From an uncultured Azospirillaceae bacterium (GTDB taxonomy: Bacteria > Pseudomonadota > Alphaproteobacteria > Rickettsiales > UBA3002), in the NCBI GenBank assembly GCA_964352815.1, contig CAYGTO010000003.1, positions 348 to 64,347 of the forward strand: DNA of 64,000 nt. Reading direction: 5' to 3'. Below the pieces are notes generated by a model, which was not told the origin of the DNA, did not search any database, and saw nothing but the letters and a program-made list of their open reading frames with translations. How positions within the stretch are numbered: the stretch's first letter is position 1; each line of letters opens with the position of its first letter. Of this stretch, positions 8,408 to 51,308 are shown in pieces. The translations under genes and the position numbers were made by a program.

Positions 8408-9067
8408 ATGTCACCCATCACACGCACACTCGGCGTCGCACTGATTTCAGCCGTCGCGCTTTCTGGCGCAGCTCACGCCGACGGTTTCAAATTATGCGGC
8501 CAAGTCGCTAACGTTAACGACCAGATTCGTGACTGTGTCGTCACCAAAAATGCACATCAATTCAGCACGCTCAAGGATATGAAGAAGCTACGCAAAATGA
8601 CCATTACGGCAAAAGCGTATCGCCTAGATGACAAAGGGGCCGCCTATTTCGGACAAGCACCAAACCTAGAAAAAACCTTCAAATATTTTGCTGTGCACCA
8701 CGACAATCTCACAGCTGAAGGCATCAAATCATTCGAAGGCTTGCAAGCACTTGAAGAGGTCTACTTCTACAAATCGTCGCTGCCAGATGAAGGGATGAAA
8801 TCCATAGCGAAACTAAAAAACCTAGAGAAATTCGGCCACAGCGCGCCAAAGAATTTCGACGGTTCTGGTCTCGTTCATCTAAAAGCGCTGCCTAAGCTGA
8901 AAAAATTGAATCTGTCATACAGCTCGATTCCGCTAGAGAATTTGAAAGTGCTCGCCGAATACCCTGCACTTGAAGTGCTCGATTTGAATAAAACAGATCA
9001 CACACAGGAAGACCTTGAATTCTTGCTCATGGTGAACCCTGATATGCGCATCTTGACGGATCACTAA
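8408..9067 (+). CDS. Secreted leucine-rich-repeat (LRR) protein
   Basis: Signal peptide (ALISAVALSGAAHA). Repeated LxxLxxLxL units (LKNLEKF, LKALPKLKKLNLSYS, LENLKVLAEYPALEVLDLNKT). Confidence 0.7.
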   Translation: MSPITRTLGVALISAVALSGAAHADGFKLCGQVANVNDQIRDCVVTKNAHQFSTLKDMKKLRKMTITAKAYRLDDKGAAYFGQAPNLEKTFKYFAVHHDNLTAEGIKSFEGLQALEEVYFYKSSLPDEGMKSIAKLKNLEKFGHSAPKNFDGSGLVHLKALPKLKKLNLSYSSIPLENLKVLAEYPALEVLDLNKTDHTQEDLEFLLMVNPDMRILTDH

Positions 9068-9460: not shown

Positions 9461-9679
9461 CTATCGCCCACGCGCGGCGTTGTGAAGTGATAATGAAGCG
9501 GGCTCAATGCTGAAATCAGCCGCAAGCGCCTGTTGATGCGGCGCGAGGGCGGCGGCCACCAAATCAGACGCACGTTCTGCATGCACTTCCCTCGTCGCAT
9601 TACCCGCGCCATAGATGCCATTAAGTGCTTCACGCATATCGGCAATCGAAGCGCTATTCATGTTACGCGGCAACGCCAT
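9461..9679 (-). CDS. Hypothetical small protein (72 aa), second gene of an orphan operon
   Basis: Start overlaps the end of the 329-aa ORF by 17 nt. No family recognised. Confidence 0.4.
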   Translation of the reverse strand: MALPRNMNSASIADMREALNGIYGAGNATREVHAERASDLVAAALAPHQQALAADFSIEPASLSLHNAARGR

Positions 9680-10652
9680 GGGGCACCTCCATAATCGTCA
9701 GAATGCTGTCATGCAGCCGGTCAGCAAACGCGTCGCGCTCTTTATAGGGGAAGGACGGCTTTTGCTTGAGAATAAAAGCGATATCCAGGCGCACATACTG
9801 CAGGTAATGCTGCAAAATTGGCATGCGATACGCATTCCCCTTTGCGCATAAAATCACTTCCATCATCGCCGCAAACCGCGCACGTTGGCGAACCCGGTCG
9901 GGTGATGAGTTCACCGACGGAATCCCACCTTCAAGGACCGATTGCGCTTGGCGATATTCTTGATCACGGCTCGGCGCGTGAATGTTCCAGCGCTCAAGAA
10001 GATAGGCGTCGATCGCTTCAGCAAGCGTGCCGCGGCCAATCAATTTCTCCATCGCAAAGCACACATCAAATAACGCACCGGTCGAATGGCGACGGCGGCC
10101 AGTTTCTTCGGGATAATCGAGATGCTGCGCAGCCAAATGGATAAACAGATTGTGCGGGAATCCACCCGGCGCAGCAGCATCAAGATCGTCAACGTGGAGT
10201 TCCATCGTTGAATTTGCATTCACATATTTCGCAGGGACCGGCGCGGTTCCCGGGCCATGCATCAGCCACTTACCACGCTCGGTGAAAATTTCGACAAAAT
10301 CGAGCGAGCTATCAGCCGCCTCATACATCTGGCGCGCGAAGGTCGCGAGCGCCGGCAGTGCCCAGTGCGACATACCATCCAGCACCTCATCATGGAACAG
10401 CGCCGCGAGCTCGTTCCAGCTTTCAATCTTCGCCTCGCAATGCACCCAGCCATCCTTATCGAAATGGGTGGTGAGCGGCGCGGGGTTTTTGACCCGCTTG
10501 ATCACGAGCTGCTGACGCGGAATGGCCCCGGTCACCTCACACGGCGTCACTTGGCGCAGCGTCACCAGTTTCGGCAGCGCGACATTGAGCGCAATCAGCG
10601 GCGCAAATGCCTCGCATGCATCGTTATAGAGCGTGTCCAGTTTATTCGTCAT
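9663..10652 (-). CDS. Hypothetical protein (329 aa), first gene of an orphan operon
   Basis: Long ORF with coding-like composition. No motif recognised. Confidence 0.6.
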   Translation of the reverse strand: MTNKLDTLYNDACEAFAPLIALNVALPKLVTLRQVTPCEVTGAIPRQQLVIKRVKNPAPLTTHFDKDGWVHCEAKIESWNELAALFHDEVLDGMSHWALPALATFARQMYEAADSSLDFVEIFTERGKWLMHGPGTAPVPAKYVNANSTMELHVDDLDAAAPGGFPHNLFIHLAAQHLDYPEETGRRRHSTGALFDVCFAMEKLIGRGTLAEAIDAYLLERWNIHAPSRDQEYRQAQSVLEGGIPSVNSSPDRVRQRARFAAMMEVILCAKGNAYRMPILQHYLQYVRLDIAFILKQKPSFPYKERDAFADRLHDSILTIMEVPHGVAA

Positions 10653-11062: not shown

Positions 11063-11914
11063 TTATGCGCGGCCCGCTTCCATCGATGCCAGCTCTTGCT
11101 GCGCACGCACCATATCTGCGTGGCCCATCTGAGGCCCGCCCTGACGCATCGCTGCTTCCATGGCTGCCATTTCTTCTGGCGTGACTTGCGGCATGCCGCC
11201 TTGCGGAGCGTAGGCTGCATTGTCATAGCCCATCTCATCCTCTTTGCTACCACCGAAGAGCGCACGTGCACCGAGGATCGCACCACCGATGATTGCTAAA
11301 CGGCCTGCAGCGCTTGCAGCGCGACCACCCAACCCTTCATAGGCTTTGATAGTTTCCGTGAGCTTCCCACCATTCTCTGCCACACGCGTCATGCCGGTGA
11401 ATGGCTTAACCATCCAATTCCATGCTTTGGTTAATCGTCCTGCCTTCTCAAGCCCACCGAGCGCCGCCTTCTCAAGATTCTTGATCACTCCGGCCAGTTC
11501 AGCACCTTCCACTGTAAAAGCTGCTTTAAAAGCTTCCTTGTCACCAAGCGCTTTCTTGACAGCTTCTTTGATGGCTTTCTCTGCTTCGCCCTCTTTCGCC
11601 AAATTTTCAGCTTTCAAGCCTTTCAAACTTTCCGTAACTTTCTCTGCCAAGGCTTTAAATGCGCCCTCTTCGGTTTTTACGGCGAGATTCTCAGCGCCCT
11701 TAATGCCTTTTATTGCTTCTTCGAGCTGGGCTACGAGCTCGTTCTGAATCTTTGATGCTGCATTTTCACCACCGAGATTCTCTGTAAGTGAGGCAAGCGC
11801 CCCCTTACTTTCAAACGCCTTCTTCATTTCAGCGAAGAACCCGCCTTTAATTGCTTCTTTATTCGTCAGTACTAGCACTGCTTCTTCTGTTGCCGCTTTT
11901 GCTTCTTCAGCCAT
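11063..11914 (-). CDS. Hypothetical Ala/Lys/Glu-rich protein with Gly-rich hydrophobic segment
   Basis: Start MAEEAKAAT preceded by SD AAGGGGA. Helical A/K/E repeats, then RLAIIGGAILGARALFGG. No family recognised. Confidence 0.65.
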   Translation of the reverse strand: MAEEAKAATEEAVLVLTNKEAIKGGFFAEMKKAFESKGALASLTENLGGENAASKIQNELVAQLEEAIKGIKGAENLAVKTEEGAFKALAEKVTESLKGLKAENLAKEGEAEKAIKEAVKKALGDKEAFKAAFTVEGAELAGVIKNLEKAALGGLEKAGRLTKAWNWMVKPFTGMTRVAENGGKLTETIKAYEGLGGRAASAAGRLAIIGGAILGARALFGGSKEDEMGYDNAAYAPQGGMPQVTPEEMAAMEAAMRQGGPQMGHADMVRAQQELASMEAGRA

Positions 11915-11950
11915 GGTTCTATCCCCTTCAGGTATAATTTCGATGCTCCC

Positions 11951-12006
11951 AGTATGCACATGCTTTGTTACAGTTTTATGACAGTCCGGTGACGGTTGTA
12001 TGACAA
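11951..12006 (-). promoter_or_regulatory. Tandem Pho-box-like direct repeats plus -10 hexamer
   Basis: Gene strand reads TTGTCATACAACCGTCAC cgga CTGTCATAAAACTGTAAC, then 10 nt, then CATACT. Confidence 0.5.
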
Positions 12007-12311: not shown

Positions 12312-13550
12312 TCAATTATCACTCATCTTCAACGCTTCAATAAAAGCGGTTTGCGGGATGTCGACATTCCCGATCGAGCGCATCTTTTTCTTACCTTTCT
12401 TCTGTTTATCCAGAAGCTTACGCTTCCGCGACACATCGCCGCCATAGCATTTCGCGGTCACGTCTTTACGCATCGCGGCAATGGTTTCGCGCGCAATCAC
12501 TTTGCCGCCAATCGCCGCTTGAATCGGAATCTTAAAGAGATGACGCGGGATCAAATCCTTCAAACGCCCACACAGCGCCCTGCCCCGCGGATCGGCCTGG
12601 CTGCGATGCACCATCATCGCCAGCGCATCGACATTCTCGCCATTGACCAAAATGGTCACCTTAACCAGATCACCCTCCTCATAGCCATCCATCTCATAAT
12701 CGAAGCTGGCATAGCCTTTGGTGCAGCTCTTCAGCCGGTCATAAAAGTCAAACACCACCTCATTAAGCGGCAAGCGATACACCGCCATCGCGCGGCTGCC
12801 GACATAGGTCAGATCCTTCTGAACGCCGCGTTTCTCGGTGCAAAGCGACAGCACATTGCCGAGAAATTCATCGGGCACCATGATCGTCGCCTTGATCCAC
12901 GGTTCTTCAATGCTGGCGATTTGCGTCGGGTCGGGGTAATCCGCCGGGTTATGCAGCTCCTTGGTCTCGCCATTGCTCAAATGCATTTTATAGACCACGC
13001 TCGGCGCGGTGGTCACCAGGTCACAGTCAAACTCGCGCTCGAGCCGCTCCTGGATGATTTCCAGATGCAGTAGCCCTAAAAATCCGCAGCGAAAGCCAAA
13101 GCCAAGCGCTTGAGATGACTCCATTTCATAGGAAAAGCTGGCATCATTCAACCGCAATTTCGCGAGCGACTCTTTTAAATGTTCAAACTCACCATTATCG
13201 GTCGGATACAGCCCACAAAACACCACTGACTGCACTGGCTTAAAGCCCGGAAGCGGCTTATCCGCAGGCTTTCCCGCATCGGTGATGGTATCCCCCACAT
13301 TGGTGTCGGCCACCTGCTTAATCCCGGTCATCATATAGCCGACCTCGCCCGCACTTAAGCTTTTTACCTGCGTCATTTTAGGTGTAAAATAGCCAAGTTG
13401 ATCGACGTCATGGACCGTTCCCGCATTCATCATCTTGATTTTCTGGCCTTTTTTAATCTCGCCTTCAAACACGCGAATGAGAATGATCACACCTAGATAA
13501 GTGTCATACCAGGAGTCGATAAGGAGGGCTTTGAGGGGGGTGTCGTGCAC
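12312..13550 (-). CDS. lepA: Elongation factor 4 (LepA), C-terminal fragment (domains II to C-terminal domain), separate ORF
   Basis: GTG-initiated ORF beginning [20 protein letters not shown]. That is the point where LepA continues after the G domain. The rest is LepA-like through to the C-terminus. Confidence 0.85.
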
Positions 13551-13659
13551 GTCTATTCTTTAATATGTTCCATTTTCATCATTGGAACGCATCAATAGAG
13601 GATTAACAATTGGCTGTCACTATATTATAGTAGCTACGCACAATCAAAGGAGGCATCTG

Positions 13660-13893
13660 ATGAAACTGACTGAAGAACAGACACACCAGATTACGGATGT
13701 GTTTAAAAAAGATCCCGAATTTGCGCGATATGTTGAGAGTATCGTGAATGATCTGTGGGATAAGAGCGACGCTGACGGCCGCATGGCGTTGGCGGGCAAT
13801 GTCGCATTCCACTTTCAACAGCGCGGCGTTGAGCTTCCGGTGAGCGCGGATGGGAGTGGCATCACGGTTCAGGATATACACGCAGCGCAATAG
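13660..13893 (+). CDS. Hypothetical small protein (77 aa) encoded inside the lepA-splitting insert, opposite strand
   Basis: ATG at 13660 preceded by a strong SD, AAAGGAGG. No family recognised. Confidence 0.5.
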   Translation: MKLTEEQTHQITDVFKKDPEFARYVESIVNDLWDKSDADGRMALAGNVAFHFQQRGVELPVSADGSGITVQDIHAAQ

Positions 13894-13905
13894 GCCAGTT
13901 AGAGG

Positions 13906-14478
13906 TTAGGCCGCCATTTTCGGCGCGGGAAGCCGGGTGACGATCGCTTCGAGCATTTCGTCAATCCCAAGGCCGGTTTTCGCGGAACAGAGCACGGCTT
14001 CGCTCGCATCAATCCCGATCACATCTTCAATCTGCTCGCGCACTCGGTCAGGGTCAGCGGCAGGAAGATCGATTTTGTTGAGCACAGGAATAATTTCGAG
14101 ATCTAAATCAATCGCCTGATAGACATTGGCGAGTGTCTGCGCTTCGACCCCTTGCGCAGCATCCACCACCAATAGCGCGCCTTCGCACGCCGCCAAACAG
14201 CGGCTCACCTCATAGGCAAAATCGACATGGCCCGGCGTGTCCATCAGGTTGAGAATATAGGTCTCGCCATCCTTGGCCTTATATTCGAGCCGCACTGTCT
14301 GCGATTTAATCGTAATCCCCCGCTCGCGCTCAATGTCCATATTATCGAGCATCTGCTCACCCAAATCCCGGTCCTCCACCGCGCCGCAGGCCTGAATCAG
14401 CCGGTCCGCCAGCGTCGACTTGCCATGGTCAATATGCGCAATGATAGAGAAATTTCGAATTTTCGTGATGTCTGTCAT
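13906..14478 (-). CDS. lepA: Elongation factor 4 (LepA), N-terminal GTPase-domain fragment, separate ORF
   Basis: G1 [10 protein letters not shown]3 DTPGH, G4 NKID. Ends ...[12 protein letters not shown]-stop, where intact LepA proteins continue in frame. Confidence 0.9.
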
Positions 14479-14698: not shown

Positions 14699-15868
14699 AT
14701 GGCAATAACACGCGAGAGGAATAGCAAATCTGTGCGATCATCTAAAAAGCAAGAACCATTACTGAGAACTCTAGAAGAGCTTTTAATAGAGGAAAAATTA
14801 CAGCATGACAAGCTGCTAGAGGCGATTCGTGTAAAAGATAATAGTGTCGCGCTGGATCTTATACAAAGCGGCGTTGCTCTTGACGTTAAAAACATGTTTG
14901 GCTCTACCGCTCTACACGAGGCATGCTTAAAGCGCATGGAGCCCGTCGCCATCGCAATGATTCAACATGGCGCGCCTCTTGATGCAACCGATATGGGCGG
15001 TGAAACGCCTTTACATGCGGCATGTTCTCGCAAATTAGAAAAAGCCGCAGAGCATATGCTTGATCGTGGCGCCAGTGTAAACACTGAAAACCAACAAGGA
15101 GACACAGCGCTTTTCTACGCGAGCTTAACTGAAATGAGTGATACCGTTGCGGCCATGATTAACGCCGGAGCAAAGCCACTTTCTATGGGACAGCTCTCTT
15201 CTTTGAGTTCGGATCAAAAGGAGTCTCTCGCAGGCATTGCACATTCTTTGGCAAAGCAAAATATCCCTCTAAAACATCTTGTCACATCTGAAATCACAAA
15301 CGATTTTTACTTGGCTTGTATGATGGGATGGGAAGATGCGGCAATAGCAATTATAGAGCAAAAAGGCATTCCTACACGGCTCAACGACACACAAAATGCG
15401 CTGCATTGTGCGTGCTCGAAAGGTTTACATAGCGTTGCCAGCTTATTACTGGATACAAAGAAGGGGCCATCTCTACTGAAACAAAAGAATATATTTGGTG
15501 AGACCCCTCTTCACATTGCGTGCTCGAAAGGTTTGTCGGATATTGCTTTAAAAATGATAGAAATGGGTGCACCACTTGATGCTGTCGATAAAACTGGCAA
15601 CACCCCCCTGCACCGGGCATGTGAGCGTAATTTAGGTCATGTGGCAAAGCGTATGCTGGAAAATGGGGCCAACCCTATGATAAGTAACCTGGAAGGAGAT
15701 ACTGCGCTCTCCATTTCTAAACGCCTAGAGATCCCAGAAGTCGCAGAACATATAGATAGGAGGTTTACTCATGGTGCCATTGATGAGTGTGCACCATGTA
15801 ATGTACTTGAAATAGTTGATGCGAGCCTGCAACCACTCAGTGTGGAGTCAATAGACCAGCAACGATAG
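14699..15868 (+). CDS. Ankyrin-repeat protein
   Basis: Multiple ANK units (GSTALHEACLK..., GETPLHAACSRK..., GDTALFYAS, GETPLHIACSKG, GNTPLHRACERN, GDTALSIS). Confidence 0.85.
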   Translation: MAITRERNSKSVRSSKKQEPLLRTLEELLIEEKLQHDKLLEAIRVKDNSVALDLIQSGVALDVKNMFGSTALHEACLKRMEPVAIAMIQHGAPLDATDMGGETPLHAACSRKLEKAAEHMLDRGASVNTENQQGDTALFYASLTEMSDTVAAMINAGAKPLSMGQLSSLSSDQKESLAGIAHSLAKQNIPLKHLVTSEITNDFYLACMMGWEDAAIAIIEQKGIPTRLNDTQNALHCACSKGLHSVASLLLDTKKGPSLLKQKNIFGETPLHIACSKGLSDIALKMIEMGAPLDAVDKTGNTPLHRACERNLGHVAKRMLENGANPMISNLEGDTALSISKRLEIPEVAEHIDRRFTHGAIDECAPCNVLEIVDASLQPLSVESIDQQR

Positions 15869-18768: not shown

Positions 18769-19236
18769 ATGAACAAGAATCCTACCAAGCAGTGGAATGA
18801 ACGGCGGTTTTACAAACTTAGCCTTCTGCTGCCCGTTTTATTTCCCATTATGTTAGTGATGTTCGTCATCCCTATTGCCGTTATTTATGCAATGGTGACG
18901 GGTGAAACCGTAGATAGTTTTTTGGAAACAGATATTGGCTATGTGCTTCTATGGATCACGCTAACCTTTGTCGGAGGCATCATATTAGCATCTTTTATAT
19001 ATTTGTTATGTGTTCCTATTGGTCTGCTCATTACACGAAATTGGTCCATGTTTGCATTTAAACTCTGGGGAATTTCACTCCCCATTCAGCTCACTGGGTT
19101 ATCATACGCACTCTATGGTGAAGCATGGTTGGCACTTGGGCTTCTTGTTGGCTACTTCTACGTTGCACTGGCCTTCGCAATCGGCTATTTCAAAAAGCGG
19201 TATCATTTGAAACATGGGACGTATGTTGGTGGGTAG
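18769..19236 (+). CDS. Hypothetical integral membrane protein (155 aa)
   Basis: About four hydrophobic helices. No family recognised. Confidence 0.5.
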
Positions 19237-19251
19237 CCATCTTCGCCCCAT

Positions 19252-19322
19252 GTCATTGCACGATTTATTCGGGCAATCCAACCAAAAAACTCTTGGATTA
19301 CCCGGACAAGCCAGGTAATGAC
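19252..19322. repeat. Palindromic element (GTCATTGCACGATTTATTCGGGCAATCC ... GGATTACCCGGACAAGCCAGGTAATGAC)
   Basis: The same two hairpin modules occur in swapped order at 38390-38461. Partial copy near 25660. Confidence 0.65.
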
Positions 19323-19328
19323 AAGGAC

Positions 19329-20738
19329 ATGAACACCAAAACCCTCTACGATAAAATCTTTGACGCTCACCTCGTGCATGAGGCCGAGGATGGCACCTGC
19401 CTGCTCTATATCGACCGGCAGATGATTCATGAAGTGACCAGCCCGCAAGCTTTTGAAGGGCTGCGCATGGCGGGGCGGACGCCGCGTCATCCCGAAGCAC
19501 AGCTCGCGGTGGCGGATCACAATGTGCCGACCACGCCCGACCGCGCGCAGGGGATTAAGGATGAAACCTCGCGCATTCAGGTCGAGACGCTCGAGAAAAA
19601 CTGCGAAGAATTCGGCATCACCTATTTCAAAATGGACGATCTGCGTCAGGGCATCGTGCATATTGTCGGCCCGGAACAAGGCTTCACCCAGCCCGGCATG
19701 ACGATTGTTTGCGGCGATTCACATACCTCCACCCATGGCGCGTTTGGCGCGCTGGCCTTTGGTATTGGGACGAGCGAAGTGGAACATGTGCTGGCAACGC
19801 AAACGCTGATTCAAAAACGCGCCAAGAATTTGCTCGTCAAGATTGAAGGTGAGCTTGGGCACTATGTCACCGCGAAAGACATTACCCTCGCGGTGATTGG
19901 CAAAATCGGCACGGCTGGCGGCACCGGCTATGTCATTGAATATGCCGGCTCGGCGATCCGCAATCTGTCGATGGAAGGGCGGATGACCGTGTGTAATATG
20001 AGCATCGAGGCAGGCGCGCGCGCAGGCCTGATCGCGCCGGATGAAAAAACCTTTGACTATTTGAAAGGCCGCCCGATGGCACCGCAAGGGGCGGATTGGG
20101 AGAAGGCCGTCGCCTATTGGAATACGCTGCCCGCGGATGACGGCGCGCACTATGATGTGGTGGTCGAGTTGGATGCCAGCGAGATTGCGCCGCAAGTCAC
20201 CTGGGGCACCAGCCCGCAAGATGTGCTGCCAATCACCGGTCAAGTCCCCTCGCCTGACAGTTTTGATACCGGCCGCAAGGAAGCGGTTGAGCGCTCGCTC
20301 AATTATATGGGCCTCAGCGCCGGCACGAAACTCACCGATGTGCCGATTGATAAAGTGTTTATCGGCTCTTGCACCAATGGCCGGATTGAAGATTTGCGCG
20401 AAGTGGCGAAGCTGGCCGAGGGCAGAAAAGTTGCGAGCAATGTGAGGCTCGCCATGGTGGTGCCGGGATCGGGCCTGGTGAAACAGCAAGCCGAAGCGGA
20501 AGGGCTGGACAAAATTTTTGTTGCTGCCGGCTTTGAGTGGCGCGAGCCGGGCTGTTCGATGTGCCTCGCGATGAATGCGGACAAGCTCGAGGAAGGGGAG
20601 CGCTGCGCCTCGACCTCAAACCGGAATTTCGAAGGCCGCCAAGGCCGCGGCGGGCGCACTCATCTGATGAGCCCGGCCATGGCAACGGCTGCCGCGATCA
20701 CCGGCAAGCTTGCCGATGTTCGGAAACTGGCGGGTTAG
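19329..20738 (+). CDS. leuC: 3-isopropylmalate dehydratase large subunit
   Basis: [16 protein letters not shown]..., aconitase-family Cys ligands ([19 protein letters not shown]). The ORF-track N-terminal extension reads through a repeat and is rejected. Confidence 0.9.
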
Positions 20739-21658
20739 GCAGCGCCTAACGAATGTAATGGCGCTTCCTGAACAGTGCCATCTACTTGCGCGCCGTCTGC
20801 CACGGGTGACGGCTCTAATAGTTTCTTCATCGCTTTCAGATAACCATCGAACGTTTTGTACCCGATTTGTTTTGCCATCTCACCGCGAAACCGCTGAGAC
20901 TTAATCATGTCGCCCCTAATGCCTTGCACCTCATCACACATAACTTTGTATATATCTTTGATAATCTGCGCTGCTTGTGCGGCGTCTTGCACCACTCCAT
21001 ACGCCACAAGCTCTTCCGGTGTCGCCACGCGCATTTTATGGATGTCGACCTGCGCTGCCTTCACCGCATCCGTGCGACTCATATTCTGTGCCACTTCCAT
21101 GGTTAAGGCAGAAGCTTTCTCGGCATCTTTTTGCTCAATCTCGCCGAAAAGGGGCTGATCCACACCAAGCATACGGAAGACCAGGCCACGAATATTTTCA
21201 TTGATCTGATCTTTCGGAATAGCATTAAAATATTCGTCAATCAGCATTTCCACTTCTCCTCCTCGTGACGATTGAAGCGCCATACGCACACGCCCCATCG
21301 CAGGGAGATATCCGGCCTGTGCAAACACGTCATCAGCCATATCACCTATCGATTGCCTTTCATAATACGACAAGGTGAGAGGAATTTGCGCGAATGCCCA
21401 GTCATCAAGATGGACTGGTCCCTGACCCTCTAAAAAACCAATCTCCAACACATTGGCGAAGGCGAATTGTTCCTTTTTTGGGGGCAGGTACGCATGACTC
21501 CCAGCCTGTTTGATACAGTCGCCTGTTTCGCATCCTTCTTTCACTGCAGAAAGGTAAACATCCTTCTTTCCAGCCAGCGTAAGAAACGCCCGCGACATCT
21601 GCATAGGGATAGATTGGGTTGTTTGTAGTAGTTTTAATTCGTCTTCACGGTCCATCAT
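20735..21658 (-). CDS. Hypothetical protein (about 307 aa) inserted antisense between leuC and leuD
   Basis: Long ORF. Start placed at MMDREDEL, downstream of the predicted promoter. Its stop overlaps the leuC stop (TTAG). No family recognised. Confidence 0.6.
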
Positions 21659-21683
21659 TCTCTCATCAATTAAATGAAACGAT

Positions 21684-21728
21684 ACCATAGCGCACTGTCT
21701 GAGACATTGCATGACAGTTTGATGACAA
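21684..21728 (-). promoter_or_regulatory. Pho-box-like triple direct repeat plus -10 hexamer
   Basis: Gene strand reads TTGTCATCAAACTGTCATGCAATGTCTCA, then TATGGT 21 nt after the second repeat. Confidence 0.45.
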
Positions 21729-21962: not shown

Positions 21963-22424
21963 ATGAAAAATGTACTCATGATCGTTGGAGCCGTGTTTCT
22001 CATCGGCCTCATCGGGGGAGGCGTCTGGATCGCCAGCATGATCTCAAAAGGTGCTGAACTAGACGCTTCCTCACGCGCGTTTGTGGAAGAGAAAATTCCT
22101 GAACTTGCGCGAAATAAATGGTATGGCCCCTATATGAGGCCGCTCGCACACAGTGCGTTTATGGAAGCCGTCTCCATGGAAGATTGGCAGCGCATCTCGA
22201 CGCTTTATTGGCAAAAGCTGGGCATGCTGAACGATTATGGTCCATGCGAAGGGCAAGCGACGATGAATTACACGCCAGAGGGTGAAGAAATCAGCGCCGA
22301 ATATGTCTGCGACGCGCGCTTTGAAAAAGCTAATGCAACCATTGAACTCCGCCTTTTTATTGAGAATAATGACTGGAAATTGGTCAACATATCGGTTAAT
22401 TCTCCTGTGTTCTTGAATCAGTAA
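21963..22424 (+). CDS. Hypothetical membrane-anchored protein (153 aa)
   Basis: N-terminal TM ([24 protein letters not shown]). No family recognised. Confidence 0.55.
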
Positions 22425-22432
22425 GGAGAAAC

Positions 22433-23041
22433 ATGGAATCATTCACGAAACATACGGGCCGCGCGGCGCCCTTGCCCTTGATCAATGTCGATACGGACAT
22501 GATCATTCCGAAGCAGTTTCTGAAAACGATTAAGCGCACCGGCCTTGGCGCGAATCTGTTTGACGAAATGCGCTTCACGAAAGACGGCGCGGAAATTCCG
22601 GAATTTGTACTGAATCAAGAAGCCTATCGCAGCGCATCCGTGCTGATCAGCGGCGATAATTTTGGCTGCGGCTCGAGCCGTGAGCATGCGCCTTGGGCAT
22701 TGCTGGATTTTGGTATTCGCTGCGTGATTGCGCCGAGCTATGCCGATATTTTCTATAATAATTGCTTCAAGAATGGGATCTTGCCAATCGCATTGCCAAA
22801 CAATCAGGTGGACGCGCTGACGCAAGTCGCTGCTAACCCGGATAATGAAATTACGATCGATTTAGAAAGCCAAAAAATCCGCGCGATGAATGTCGAATAT
22901 GATTTTGATGTCGATCCGTTTCGTAAACATTGCCTAATGAACGGGCTCGATGATATTGGTCTAACGCTCGAGAAAGCCGTATCGATCGATGCGTATGAAA
23001 CGCAGCGTAAAAGCGAAACCCCATGGCTGTTCGCGAGCTAA
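22433..23041 (+). CDS. leuD: 3-isopropylmalate dehydratase small subunit
   Basis: [28 protein letters not shown] and [17 protein letters not shown] motifs. Confidence 0.9.
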
Positions 23042-47124: not shown

Positions 47125-48948
47125 TTACGAGGCTTTTTTGGCCGCCCGGCTCGCCTTCTTCCGCTCATTCGGATCCAGCTCACGTTTACGCAAACGGAGA
47201 CTTTTAGGCGTGACTTCCACCAGCTCATCTTCCTGAATGTAGGAAATCATCTCCTCTAACACAAGCTTGCGCGGCGGCACGAGGCGCACCGCTTCATCCG
47301 TCCCTGAGGCACGAACGTTGGTCAGCTGCTTGCCTTTGAGCACATTAATCTCAAGGTCATTATCACGGCTATGCTCGCCGACAATCATCCCCTGATAGAC
47401 CTTATCCTGCGGGTTAATGAACATCACGCCGCGATCCTGCAAATTGAAAATGGCATAGGCCACTGCCTCGCCCTGATCGGTCGAGATCAGCGCACCATTG
47501 CGCCGCCCTTCAATGTCACCCTTGTAGGGGCCGTGGCTGTGATAGAGCCGGTTCATCACGCCAGTCCCGCGCGTATCGGTCAGAAACTCGCTCTGATAGC
47601 CGATCAGCCCGCGTGAGGGCGCGAGGAAGGTGATTCGCGTTTTGCCCCCGCCTGAAGGGCGCATATCGCTCATCACGCCTTTGCGCATCGAAATTTTCTC
47701 CACCACCGAACCGGAATGTTCCTCATCGACATCGACGACGACCTCTTCCATCGGCTCCAGCAATGCGCCGTTCTCTTCTTTCAGTAACACGCGCGGGCGC
47801 GAGACTGACATTTCAAAGCCCTCGCGGCGCATGGTTTCAATCAACACGCCGAGCTGTAATTCACCGCGCCCCCCCACTTCATAGGCGTCTGAATTTTCAG
47901 ATTCCGTTACGGTAATCGCGACATTCGTTTCCGCCTCGGCGAGCAACCGGTCACGAATCATCCGGCTCGTCACCTTGCTACCTTCCTGCCCGGCAAAGGG
48001 TGAATCATTCACGCTGATCGTGATCGCCATGGTCGGCGGATCAATCGGTGTCGAAGGAATTGGCTCACTTACCGCCGGGTCACAAATCGTGTCCGAGACC
48101 GAGGCAATGTTCGTCCCCGCGATCGAAATAATATCCCCCGCCTGCGCCTCTTCCACCGGCACACGCTCCACGCCTTTGAACGACATCAGCTTGGTCAAAC
48201 GCCCAGTTTCAATCTGTTTTCCCTCAAGGTTCAGCACCTTAATCGGCGCGTTCAGCTTCGCCGTGCCGCTGGCCACGCGGCCTGTCAGAATCCGGCCCAG
48301 GAAAGAATCCGATTCCAGCAGCGTCCCAAGCATCGCGAACGGCGCATCCTGATCGACTTCTGGCGCGGGCACATGTTTGATAATCAGCTCGAGCATCGGC
48401 GTCAAATCCTTACGCTCACCGTCAAGCTCGGTGGTGCACCAGCCATCGCGGCCGGACGCATAGAGAATCGGGAAATCGAGCTGTTCTTCGCTGGCATCGA
48501 GCGCGGCGAACAGGTCAAACACCTCATCCACCACCTCATCGGGGCGGCCATCCGGGCGGTCGACCTTATTGATCACCACCATTGGCCGCAAACCTTGCGC
48601 CAGCGCTTTACCCAGCACAAATTTCGTCTGCGGCATCGGCCCTTCCGCCGCATCGGTGAGCAAAATCACCCCGTCGGCCATATGCAGAATCCGCTCCACC
48701 TCGCCGCCAAAGTCCGCGTGACCGGGCGTATCGATGATATTAATCCGCGTCTCTTCCCAATCGATCGAGGTACATTTCGCCAGAATCGTAATGCCGCGCT
48801 CTTTCTCCAAATCATTGGAATCCATCACCCGTTCCTGCACATTCTGATTGTCACGGAACGTACCCGACTGCTGCAAAAGCGAGTCAATCAGCGTGGTTTT
48901 GCCATGGTCTACATGGGCGATGATGGCGATGTTTCTTAGCTGGGTCAT
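47125..48948 (-). CDS. typA: Translational GTPase TypA/BipA
   Basis: [39 protein letters not shown], and the rest BipA-like. The ORF-track N-terminal extension runs through a repeat and is rejected. Confidence 0.92.
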
Positions 48949-48959
48949 AGTTTTTATTT

Positions 48960-49036
48960 GCTCCCGCTCCGGCCGTCTGGCCTGCGCGATGAGCCTAACG
49001 CCTGCGGCGACTAAAGGCTCGGTCTGCTGACCTCGA
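48960..49036 (-). repeat. Dispersed element, family 3, abutting the typA start
   Basis: Reverse complement reads CGAGGTCAGCAGACCGAGCCTTTAGTCGCCGCAGGCGTTAGGCTCATCGCGCAGGCCAGACGGCCGGAGCGGGAG. Copies at 12223, 51344 and 56787. Confidence 0.6.
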
Positions 49037-49099
49037 AGCATTCTCCTTTATGTGTGAATGTATGCTGCGCGCTGTATAGCGTGCTGCACTGCGAAAAGA

Positions 49100-49975
49100 A
49101 AGGGGTTTTTGTAAGCTGTCATTCCCTGAATTTTGTGAAACAAAATTCTAAGGGAATCCAGTGCGTGTGGCTCTGGATTCCCTTAGAATGCGACGCATTC
49201 GGGCAATGACATCATCAGCAGGCGCAGGCAAGGCGCATAAGAAAAGAAAGATGCGCGCCCGCCCCGCCGCGATCAGTGCGGCTTTCTTCTCTGGTGTCAT
49301 CGGTTTTACTCCTTTTCATCCGATAACGTGACTACACGAGGCTACCTGCTGGCGGCCTCGGACTTCAAGTTCCTAAGAACAAAAGAAATCTATGAATGAT
49401 AGCATGGTAAGGGCCTGGAATTATGTGACAAAATGATGAAGATTTTCGGCTACATCGTCATTGCGAGCGGCGAAGCCGCGTGGCACCCGGAGCGAAGCGG
49501 GTGACACACAAGATCCCGGCCTTCGCCGGAGTTGCGGCTCCTGTAATTGTCACCCCGTCGCATGACAGAGTCTCCTTACTCTTGCCGAGAGCCTACGGCG
49601 TACAGATGGAGACCCCGCAATAAATGCGGGGTGACAGATTGGAGTATTTCCGCACTGCACAAAGCCCCTTGACAGGTCAGCAAAACTATGTTCAACTGTA
49701 GTCATCGTGTTGATTTAACCAAATTGCGGACACGTAAAATAACCGGCTAAAGAGGAACTTCCAGACACCTGTTCTCCTTTAGCCATATGTAAACTGCTAA
49801 AACGGATGGCGTTTGTTGTCATTCCAACGGTGAGCATGCAGTAGCATGCGAGTCCATGGAATCCACAACAGCCAAATGTCAGGAGACATTTGGCGTCAGA
49901 AAAAATCTCCTGATTTTTTCTTCCTGGATTGCCTGCGACTCATGGTCTTCTGACCATTCGCGCGTGGCAATGACA
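49100..49975. repeat. Dense nest of at least six GTCAT..ATGAC palindromic elements in a ~0.95-kb non-coding gap
   Basis: Elements starting near 49118, 49452, 49545, 49815, 49880 and 49924, read directly. Confidence 0.6.
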
Positions 49976-49997: not shown

Positions 49998-51308
49998 ATG
50001 TCTGATCTACCCACCAACCTACACCCCGAAACCCTGGCCGTGCGCGCGGGCGCTAAGCCTGACCCAGCGACTGGCGCGGCGCAAACGCCGATCTATCAGA
50101 GCGCGAGCTTTGTGTTTGAGGATACCGATCACGCGGCGCGGCTGTTTAGCCTGCAGGAGTTCGGCAATATCTATTCGCGCCTGACTAACCCCACCGTCGG
50201 TGCGCTACAAGATCGCGTGGCAGCGCTCGAAGGCGGCGTCGGCGCGGTGGCCACGGCCTCGGGTCATGCGGCGCAGCTCACCGCCTTCTTCAACCTGCTC
50301 CAGCCCGGCGATAATATCGTCGCCTCGAACAAGCTCTATGGCGGCTCAATCACTCAGCTCAGCAAGAGTTTCAAGCAGTTCGGCTGGGAGGCGAAATTCG
50401 CCGATATTACTGATCCCGAAAGTTTCAAACCGCTGATCGATGCGAACACCAAAGCGCTCTATGCCGAGACGCTTTCGAACCCTGAAGGCACGGTCGCAGA
50501 CATTGAAGCGCTCGCAAAAATCGCCCATGAGGCAGGGATTCCGCTGATTGTCGATAATACGATTGCAACGCCCTTCCTGTGTAAGCCAATCGAATGGGGC
50601 GCGGATATTGTGATTCTCTCGACAACGAAATATCTAACTGGGAATGGCTCGACCATTGGCGGCATCATTGTCGATTCCGGGAAATTTGACTGGGCACAGA
50701 ATGATAAATTCCCGCTGCTCGCAAAGCCCGATGATTCCTATCACGGCCTGACCTTCACCGAGAGTTTCGGCAACCTCGCTTTCTTCGTGCGCACCATCGC
50801 GGTGGGCTTGCGTGATTTGGGCGCATGCCAGTCGCCATTCAATGCATTCCTCACGCTGACCGCACTGGAGACACTGCATTTACGCATCGAACGCCATAGC
50901 CAAAGCGCGCTGAAAATCGCAGAATATTTAGCGAATCATCCGGCCGTTGCCGAGGTCACCCACCCTGCCCTGCATGAGAATGAAAACAAGAAGCGCCTCG
51001 AGAAATATTTCCCCAAAGGCGCGAGCGGCCTGTTTGCGATCAAGCTCAAAGCGGGGTATGAGGCCGGCAAAGCGCTGGTGGAAAACACGCAGCTCTTTTT
51101 GCATTTGGCGAATCTCGGCGATTCACGCTCGCTGATTGTGCATCCGGCATCGACGTCACACTCACAGCTCACTGACGCGCAAAAAGAAGCGGCTGGCGTG
51201 GGGCCAGACGTGGTGCGTTTGTCGATCGGGCTGGAGCATCCGGATGATTTGATTGCTGATTTAGAGCAGGCACTTGCGGCGGTTTCAGAAACCAAAGCTG
51301 CAGCCTAG
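49998..51308 (+). CDS. metY: O-acetylhomoserine sulfhydrylase (PLP-dependent)
   Basis: Cys/Met-metabolism PLP family. LSTTKYLTGNGSTIGG (PLP Lys). N-terminal ETLAVRAG...PIYQSASFVF. Confidence 0.9.
   Translation: MSDLPTNLHPETLAVRAGAKPDPATGAAQTPIYQSASFVFEDTDHAARLFSLQEFGNIYSRLTNPTVGALQDRVAALEGGVGAVATASGHAAQLTAFFNLLQPGDNIVASNKLYGGSITQLSKSFKQFGWEAKFADITDPESFKPLIDANTKALYAETLSNPEGTVADIEALAKIAHEAGIPLIVDNTIATPFLCKPIEWGADIVILSTTKYLTGNGSTIGGIIVDSGKFDWAQNDKFPLLAKPDDSYHGLTFTESFGNLAFFVRTIAVGLRDLGACQSPFNAFLTLTALETLHLRIERHSQSALKIAEYLANHPAVAEVTHPALHENENKKRLEKYFPKGASGLFAIKLKAGYEAGKALVENTQLFLHLANLGDSRSLIVHPASTSHSQLTDAQKEAAGVGPDVVRLSIGLEHPDDLIADLEQALAAVSETKAAA

Follow-up and report, generated by a model that had tools for sequence, protein, structure and literature searches.

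The stretch analyzed here, hereafter called the window, comprises 64,000 nt of contig CAYGTO010000003.1 from an uncultured Azospirillaceae bacterium, and the observation taken up is the split of its lepA gene, which encodes the translational GTPase EF4 (LepA), across positions 12312-14478. The gene is present as two open reading frames (ORFs), designated lepA-N and lepA-C. The same split is conserved among related lineages, the two halves are retained together, and both are under strong purifying selection. We consider it likely, with a probability of roughly 0.75, that EF4 works across this clade as two polypeptides that assemble in trans.

The features of the locus are collected in Table 1. 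The lepA-N product matched the Pfam family GTP_EFTU (8e-57), its residues 6-187 could be aligned with residues 3-184 of E. coli EF4 (PDB 3CB4/3DEG), and the motifs G1 to G5, SAK included, are intact; its C-terminus is formed by a non-native tail of three residues, MAA, followed by the stop codon. The lepA-C product matched GTP_EFTU_D2, EFG_III, EFG_C and LepA_C (1e-49), and its start is a GTG, which is the sole possible start downstream of an in-frame TAA. The two ORFs, whose reading frames differ, tile the NCBIfam lepA equivalog TIGR01393 (595 positions): lepA-N matches positions 2-184 with 337 bits, and lepA-C alone matches positions 187-594 with 629.6 bits, as compared with a cut-off of 533.9, which leaves two model positions uncovered and gives a summed score near 967 bits. 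The linker lacks about one residue of that found in contiguous relatives (LPAPK-GELDA-PLKAL), and the MAA-stop and the GTG codon are new. The sequence-only reading had described lepA as a G domain and a remainder, with two or three linker residues missing and with a 355-bp insert carrying an oppositely oriented 77-aa ORF with a strong Shine-Dalgarno (SD) sequence; all these sequence statements hold. As in the EF4/LepA of the E. coli type, the ORFs of the window together hold all the G motifs and the LepA C-terminal domain. Unlike that type, they give two polypeptides, with the break in the linker between the G domain and domain II and with non-native new ends (the MAA tail and a first residue encoded by GTG), so that the single polypeptide of approximately 600 aa that characterizes EF4/LepA is replaced by two ORFs 355 bp apart, and likewise in at least 27 related clusters. 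Both junctions are 100% identical in the independent assemblies of the runs ERR3535001, ERR3534985 and ERR3534998; because these three assemblies agree, the split arrangement is real and not an assembly artefact.

Table 1. Features of the split lepA locus in the window, and arrangement of the lepA halves in the window and at related loci (designated by L numbers)
Feature or locus	Position, or distance between halves	Strand or arrangement	Description
lepA-N	13906..14478	-	stand-alone EF4 G domain, 190 aa
lepA-C	12312..13550	-	stand-alone EF4 domains II, III, V and LepA-specific C-terminal domain, 412 aa
Spacer between lepA genes	13551..13905	.	355 bp; lineage-specific content
77-aa orphan ORF	13660..13893	+	convergent with lepA-N, divergent from lepA-C
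Promoter-like site of 77-aa ORF	13603..13631	+	TTAACA-17-TATAGT; sigma-70-like, 10/12 matches
Promoter-like pair for lepA-C	13587..13582 and 13565..13560	-	TTCCAA, 16 nt, TATTAA; 7/12 matches
Alternative promoter-like site, lepA-C strand	13619..13647	-	TTGATT-17-TATAGT; 9/12 matches
Window	355 bp	collinear	77-aa ORF between halves, opposite strand
L088 (Rickettsiales bacterium MSM10)	624 bp	collinear	two small same-strand ORFs between
L089	966 bp	collinear	207-aa membrane-like ORF between, opposite strand
L187	1.1 kb	collinear	305-aa ORF between, opposite strand
L085	1.8 kb	collinear	82-aa and 422-aa ORFs between
L095	1.8 kb	collinear	517-aa ORF between, opposite strand
L186	2.5 kb	collinear	two ORFs between
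L180 (Tara Red Sea RS372)	about 2.8 kb	collinear	
L090, L172	3.4 and 5.4 kb	halves inverted	several ORFs between
L170 (N-half) and L087 (C-half)		unlinked	both from the 1.76-Mb contig of MFD03250.bin.1.9

The organization of lepA in related bacteria, whose comparison had been suggested, was analyzed with the protein sequences of both halves. A first scan of GTDB representative genomes, which listed 600 arbitrary pattern matches and was not exhaustive, had given one contiguous in-frame lepA in 80 of 80 relatives among the matches listed. In the search with the lepA-C protein, the same split was found among the best 120 relatives in 27 other clusters (90% identity), consisting of C-halves of 411-433 aa with no G domain. 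Many of these stand-alone C-halves lie on contigs of 0.1-1.8 Mb and are therefore not truncations, and all of them begin with a methionine located 3-14 residues ahead of PLKALL[IV]DSWYDT. The search with the lepA-N protein gave stand-alone G-domain proteins of 187-222 aa, which end 0-7 residues past LPxP and lie on the same contigs as the C-halves; for 11 N-halves the length of the longest contig equals that of one of the C-halves. Both halves are present in every lineage whose contig permitted the check. The nearest relative of the window's lepA-C, at 89% identity, is found at locus L084, where the upstream region is already different. In public records the members of the clade are labelled "Rickettsiales bacterium" or "Alphaproteobacteria bacterium".

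As shown in Table 1, the arrangement of the halves varies among lineages. At the collinear loci the halves are 0.36-2.8 kb apart, mostly with unrelated genes between them. In MFD03250.bin.1.9 the N-half adjoins nth and the C-half adjoins znuA, and no partner half was found within 6 kb of the former or 4 kb of the latter. Homology between spacer genes was observed only in L095 and L187 and among the neighbours of L090, L172 and L185. The opposite-strand spacer genes of L095 (8257-9810, - strand) and L187 (3485-4402, - strand) are homologous (6e-20), and for this reason the spacer shared by these two loci must be old; both genes contain an HExxH motif (HEAGHAL and HEAAHAL, respectively), and from their sequences they look like metalloprotease effectors. 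No conserved DNA was seen at the junctions across lineages, and no nuclease Pfam family was detected among the spacer genes of the relatives.

Selection on each half, for which a comparison of nonsynonymous (dN) and synonymous (dS) substitution rates had been proposed, was evaluated for all pairs of eight split lineages. For both halves, dS was higher than 1.2 or too saturated to compute, while dN was 0.06-0.21 and dN/dS 0.03-0.15; the closest pair, the window and L084, gave a dN of 0.081, a dS of 1.21 and a ratio of 0.067. Additionally, an alignment of 14 concatenated split pairs with 87 intact LepAs was used to find the columns that are invariant in the intact proteins, all 272 of which are kept in the window and 268-272 in the other split genomes. 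The mean distance to the outgroup is 0.224 for the N part of the split forms, as compared with 0.215 for the intact relatives nested among them, and 0.243 as compared with 0.229 for the C part. Because these distances are alike and the invariant residues are kept, there is no sign of relaxed constraint. Moreover, the N-half ends with R-[VI]-[LA] and a stop codon in 18 clusters, in which the tail is encoded by synonymously varying codons (CGG GTG TTG, CGC GTA CTT, CGC ATC CTG and CGT GTG CTG); this suggests that the tail itself is selected as a protein terminus. In the window's own group the tails are variable, the stop codon being preceded by KMAA, SLPDAA, KS and others.

The sequence-only reading had pointed out that lepA-C lacks a convincing SD sequence, which is true, yet common in this genome: an SD core of at least 4 nt was found at the longest-ORF start of 15 of the 53 long ORFs of the window, and approximately 70% of the long ORFs, lepA-N among them, have none. 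The unusual re-initiation that had been considered for lepA-C is not needed, given this proportion and a promoter-like pair 9 nt before the GTG. The same geometry of promoter-like pair and start is observed ahead of lepA-C in L085, L090 and L095, and in the window it fits a leaderless mRNA or one with a very short leader. In the relatives, both halves are preceded by -10-like boxes (GCTATA, CATAA and similar) located 6-9 nt before the ATG, which are often paired with TTGnnn 16-17 nt further upstream. Pairs of -35 and -10 elements ending 5-12 nt before the start were scored at 17 sites upstream of both halves across lineages. Their average was 7.0/12, as compared with 5.76 at random positions, and none of 20,000 resampled means of 17 reached 7.0; the null of random genome positions is lenient in that it favours AT-rich intergenic DNA, and the enrichment is suggestive only. 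The lepA-C gene is probably transcribed from within the spacer, leaderless or with a very short leader. Boxes of the type GCTATA are often observed near start codons elsewhere in the window, e.g. before 14699, 39930, 43133 and 56914, and the start signals as a whole suggest widespread leaderless or SD-independent initiation in this genome. A mini-ORF of nine codons (ATGATGAAAATGGAACATATTAAAGAATAG, 13553-13582, - strand), which has no SD sequence, ends 2 nt before the GTG of lepA-C; it is probably meaningless, and termination-reinitiation through it is conceivable.

Of the possibilities named in the sequence-only reading, a functional two-piece EF4 is the one supported by these data, namely by the recurrent split and by the purifying selection on both halves; separate transcription, initiation at GTG and trans assembly are what we infer from them. 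In the mechanism that we propose, an old fission would have cut lepA at the short linker that joins the G domain to domain II and so produced two genes, each with its own start and probably its own promoter, the starts being mostly SD-less and leaderless-looking. The two polypeptides would associate non-covalently, on or off the ribosome, through the interface of the G domain and domain II that is common to translational GTPases, and LepA-N and LepA-C together would form a working ribosome-dependent GTPase, while the intergenic gap would take up and lose unrelated genes. In a more far-reaching version, on which our judgement is evenly balanced, EF4 would be an obligate heterodimer whose linker cycles through fission and re-fusion, and lineage-specific genes, for instance those of small regulators and effector-like proteins, would find a nursery in the gap.

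Several points weigh against a two-piece EF4. The window's lepA-C uses GTG, and the match of its promoter-like pair is weak (7/12). Transcription of the 77-aa ORF runs towards lepA-N, no terminator separates the two, and interference with lepA-N is possible. Trans assembly is suggested by co-retention and constraint only, and an intact copy of lepA may exist in the split genomes outside the loci and contigs examined. Finally, intact lepA genes are nested among the split ones. A neighbour-joining tree with bootstrap values was calculated from 600 columns of full-length LepA and, as a single-gene tree, is a weak guide. In it the split forms fall into two supported clades, one with 76% (the window included) and one with 94%, and intact genes are found in both of them; the intact P0004 groups with the split P0006 with 86% bootstrap, and the intact P0040 lies inside the 94% clade.

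Because of these nested intact genes, the history of the fission is not a simple one. The R-V-L tail is found in both clades. The linker of the intact P0004 (LQPP-DEIEGSDDPRSL-PLSAL) aligns with the head of the C-half of L172 (MTEMNPREL-PLKAL), which could reflect either a split gene that has been re-fused or a long linker that is ancestral. The P0004 gene (L185, 6001-7824) shares a neighbourhood of DUF2671 and flagellar genes with L090, and it may be a re-fused gene. The sequences are compatible alike with one old fission followed by later re-fusions and with several fissions at the same linker.

Among the other explanations, the one that survives best is that the halves have been functionally parted into a free-standing GTPase and a GTPase-less ribosome-binding factor, which are kept for different reasons. 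This would be consistent with the individual constraint on each half and with the inverted and unlinked arrangements, in which co-expression is not enforced by gene order. We nevertheless regard it as unlikely, since the halves occur together in every lineage that could be checked, the invariant residues kept in the window include positions that matter only in a complete factor, and the acceleration in rate that a change of function should bring is not observed.

A recent insertional disruption, which the sequence-only reading had placed among its possibilities and which would make lepA a fresh and as yet undamaged pseudogene, is very improbable. It would accord with the GTG start and the missing SD sequence of the C-half, and two papers describe lepA as dispensable in E. 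coli (PMC4324249, PMC4245954). However, the same split is present, with a different spacer, in L084 and also in dozens of more distant lineages, the 27 further clusters among them. The split is older than divergences at which synonymous sites are saturated, dN/dS nevertheless stays at 0.15 or less, and the set of invariant residues is complete in the window.

An equally slight chance is given to the possibility that the halves are rejoined, by a group I or II intron, a split intein, ribosomal bypass or programmed DNA excision. Such mechanisms repair interrupted genes elsewhere; an example is given by the fractured genes with split inteins, conserved genes that are divided into two coding parts, in some cases with another gene lying in between (Dassa et al. 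2009, PMC2677866). Like these genes and the split DnaE of cyanobacteria, lepA is conserved and encoded in two parts; unlike them, it has no intein at the junction. With tails of 0-7 aa and heads of 3-14 aa, intein halves could not be accommodated, and there was no intein Pfam match. Rfam searches with E-values of up to 10 gave chance matches only, and no group I or II intron, in the region 13300-14150, and nothing in the spacers of seven related loci. Bypass and excision are implausible: the 355-nt spacer contains stop codons and places the halves in different frames, neither direct repeats at its flanks nor a recombinase were found, and several genomes have their halves inverted or unlinked. 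An artefact of assembly or binning, which the metagenomic source might have suggested, is the least probable explanation of all, since, besides the agreement of the three runs, the window protein is recorded on 5 contigs and many other projects show the same split.

With regard to the spacer, the 355-bp insert is doubtful as the cause of the break; more probably it is what an old intergenic gap with rapid turnover contains at present, and its 77-aa ORF is a lineage-specific passenger. Neither the spacer nor its protein showed similarity to the spacers and spacer proteins of the relatives, and these proteins are not related to the other genes of the window either. As the sequence-only reading had stated, no terminal inverted repeats and no target-site duplication were found in the spacer beyond chance 8-9-mers, and the search for other copies of the insert that it had advised gave no second copy within the window. 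The insertion of a mobile element (insertion sequence or miniature inverted-repeat transposable element) was rejected on these grounds and because the protein is an orphan. An 8-nt repeat, CCATTTTC (13570/13914), was likewise rejected as a target duplication, as it is at chance level and the frame is not restored by it.

The best promoter and SD sequence of the neighbourhood belong to the 77-aa ORF, whose SD sequence AGGAGG is located at 13648-13653, 6 nt before the start. For its product, a word search among 5.8 billion proteins retrieved only the protein itself, and a phmmer search of 1.84 billion representatives gave weak matches only, among them P0122 at 1.7e-6. A repeat of approximately 45 aa in P0122 is similar to residues 17-60 of the 77-aa product (BLASTP, 2e-6), and the P0122 repeats in turn weakly match LexA_DNA_bind and other helix-turn-helix (HTH) Pfam models. 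The single-sequence AlphaFold2 model consists of three helices (mean predicted local distance difference test score 75). There was no match to Pfam, PHROGs or NCBIfam, and no fold match with Foldseek in the PDB. That the product is a small DNA-binding (HTH-like) protein is no more than a guess, if a reasonable one. The perfect odd palindrome CTATAATATAG (13620-13630) contains the overlapping -10-like boxes of the 77-aa ORF (+ strand) and of the alternative site facing lepA-C (- strand), and it could serve as an operator for such a protein.

In kind, and by analogy, the closest known system is that of the Aeromonas phage Aeh1, in which nrdA is split by the homing endonuclease gene mobE and the products reassemble via tails made by the insertion (Crona et al. 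2010, PMC3045599). In both cases an essential-type enzyme gene is divided into two ORFs with a gene between them, and the terminal tails are as old as the split; reassembly without splicing is shown for NrdA and proposed for EF4, and the R-V/I-L tail of 18 EF4 lineages recalls the NrdA tails, which are functionally required (PMC3045599). Unlike the phage gene, lepA is split on a cellular chromosome; its split is old and extends across the clade, the content of the spacer changes, and the halves can become unlinked. No GIY-YIG, HNH or LAGLIDADG endonuclease was detected between the lepA halves, either in the 77-aa ORF or in the spacer genes of the relatives. Stable gene fissions are represented by rpoC1/rpoC2 of cyanobacteria and by the split genes of Nanoarchaeum, which resemble lepA in that the gene is divided between domains and its two parts persist as subunits. 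To our knowledge, no such stable fission is known for a translational GTPase, and full-text and keyword searches of the literature gave nothing relevant on a split lepA or EF4 or on the accession numbers, which is no proof that it is unreported.

Several other features of the window were observed. The genes leuC (Aconitase family, 19125-20738) and leuD (Aconitase_C, 22433-23041) are parted by two ORFs with no Pfam match (20735-21712, - strand, and 21963-22424, + strand), and other places in this genome likewise seem to have lineage-specific genes between conserved genes that are normally neighbours. The lepA genes are flanked by eukaryote-like repeat proteins, a leucine-rich repeat protein (8408-9067) and an ankyrin protein (14699-15868), which hint at a host-associated lifestyle, although genes for leucine synthesis, succinate dehydrogenase, cytochrome c biogenesis and a PAS histidine kinase are present in the window as well; orphans are located nearby at 9663-10652 and 11063-11959. 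An alphaproteobacterial SAM_alpha riboswitch (49697-49771, + strand), with 37.1 bits just over the gathering score, is located upstream of an ORF of 436 aa (49998-51308). A 90-nt tRNA-Ala(GGC) reported by ARAGORN (48218-48307, - strand) lies inside the ORF 47125-49041, has no Rfam support and is probably a false positive.

A translational GTPase normally has its G domain and domain II on one chain. If our reading is correct, the heterodimeric EF4 would be the first translational GTPase in two pieces to be found in nature, and a clade that keeps the halves separate, constrained and sometimes unlinked would mean that their covalent linkage is dispensable in nature. It would provide a ready-made system for studying the coupling of GTPase activation to the rest of the factor, the regulation of EF4 by subunit stoichiometry, and the survival of essential-type genes after fission. 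It is also of practical importance that lepA is a common single-copy marker of phylogeny and genome completeness, which in this clade will be scored as fragmented, duplicated or partial.

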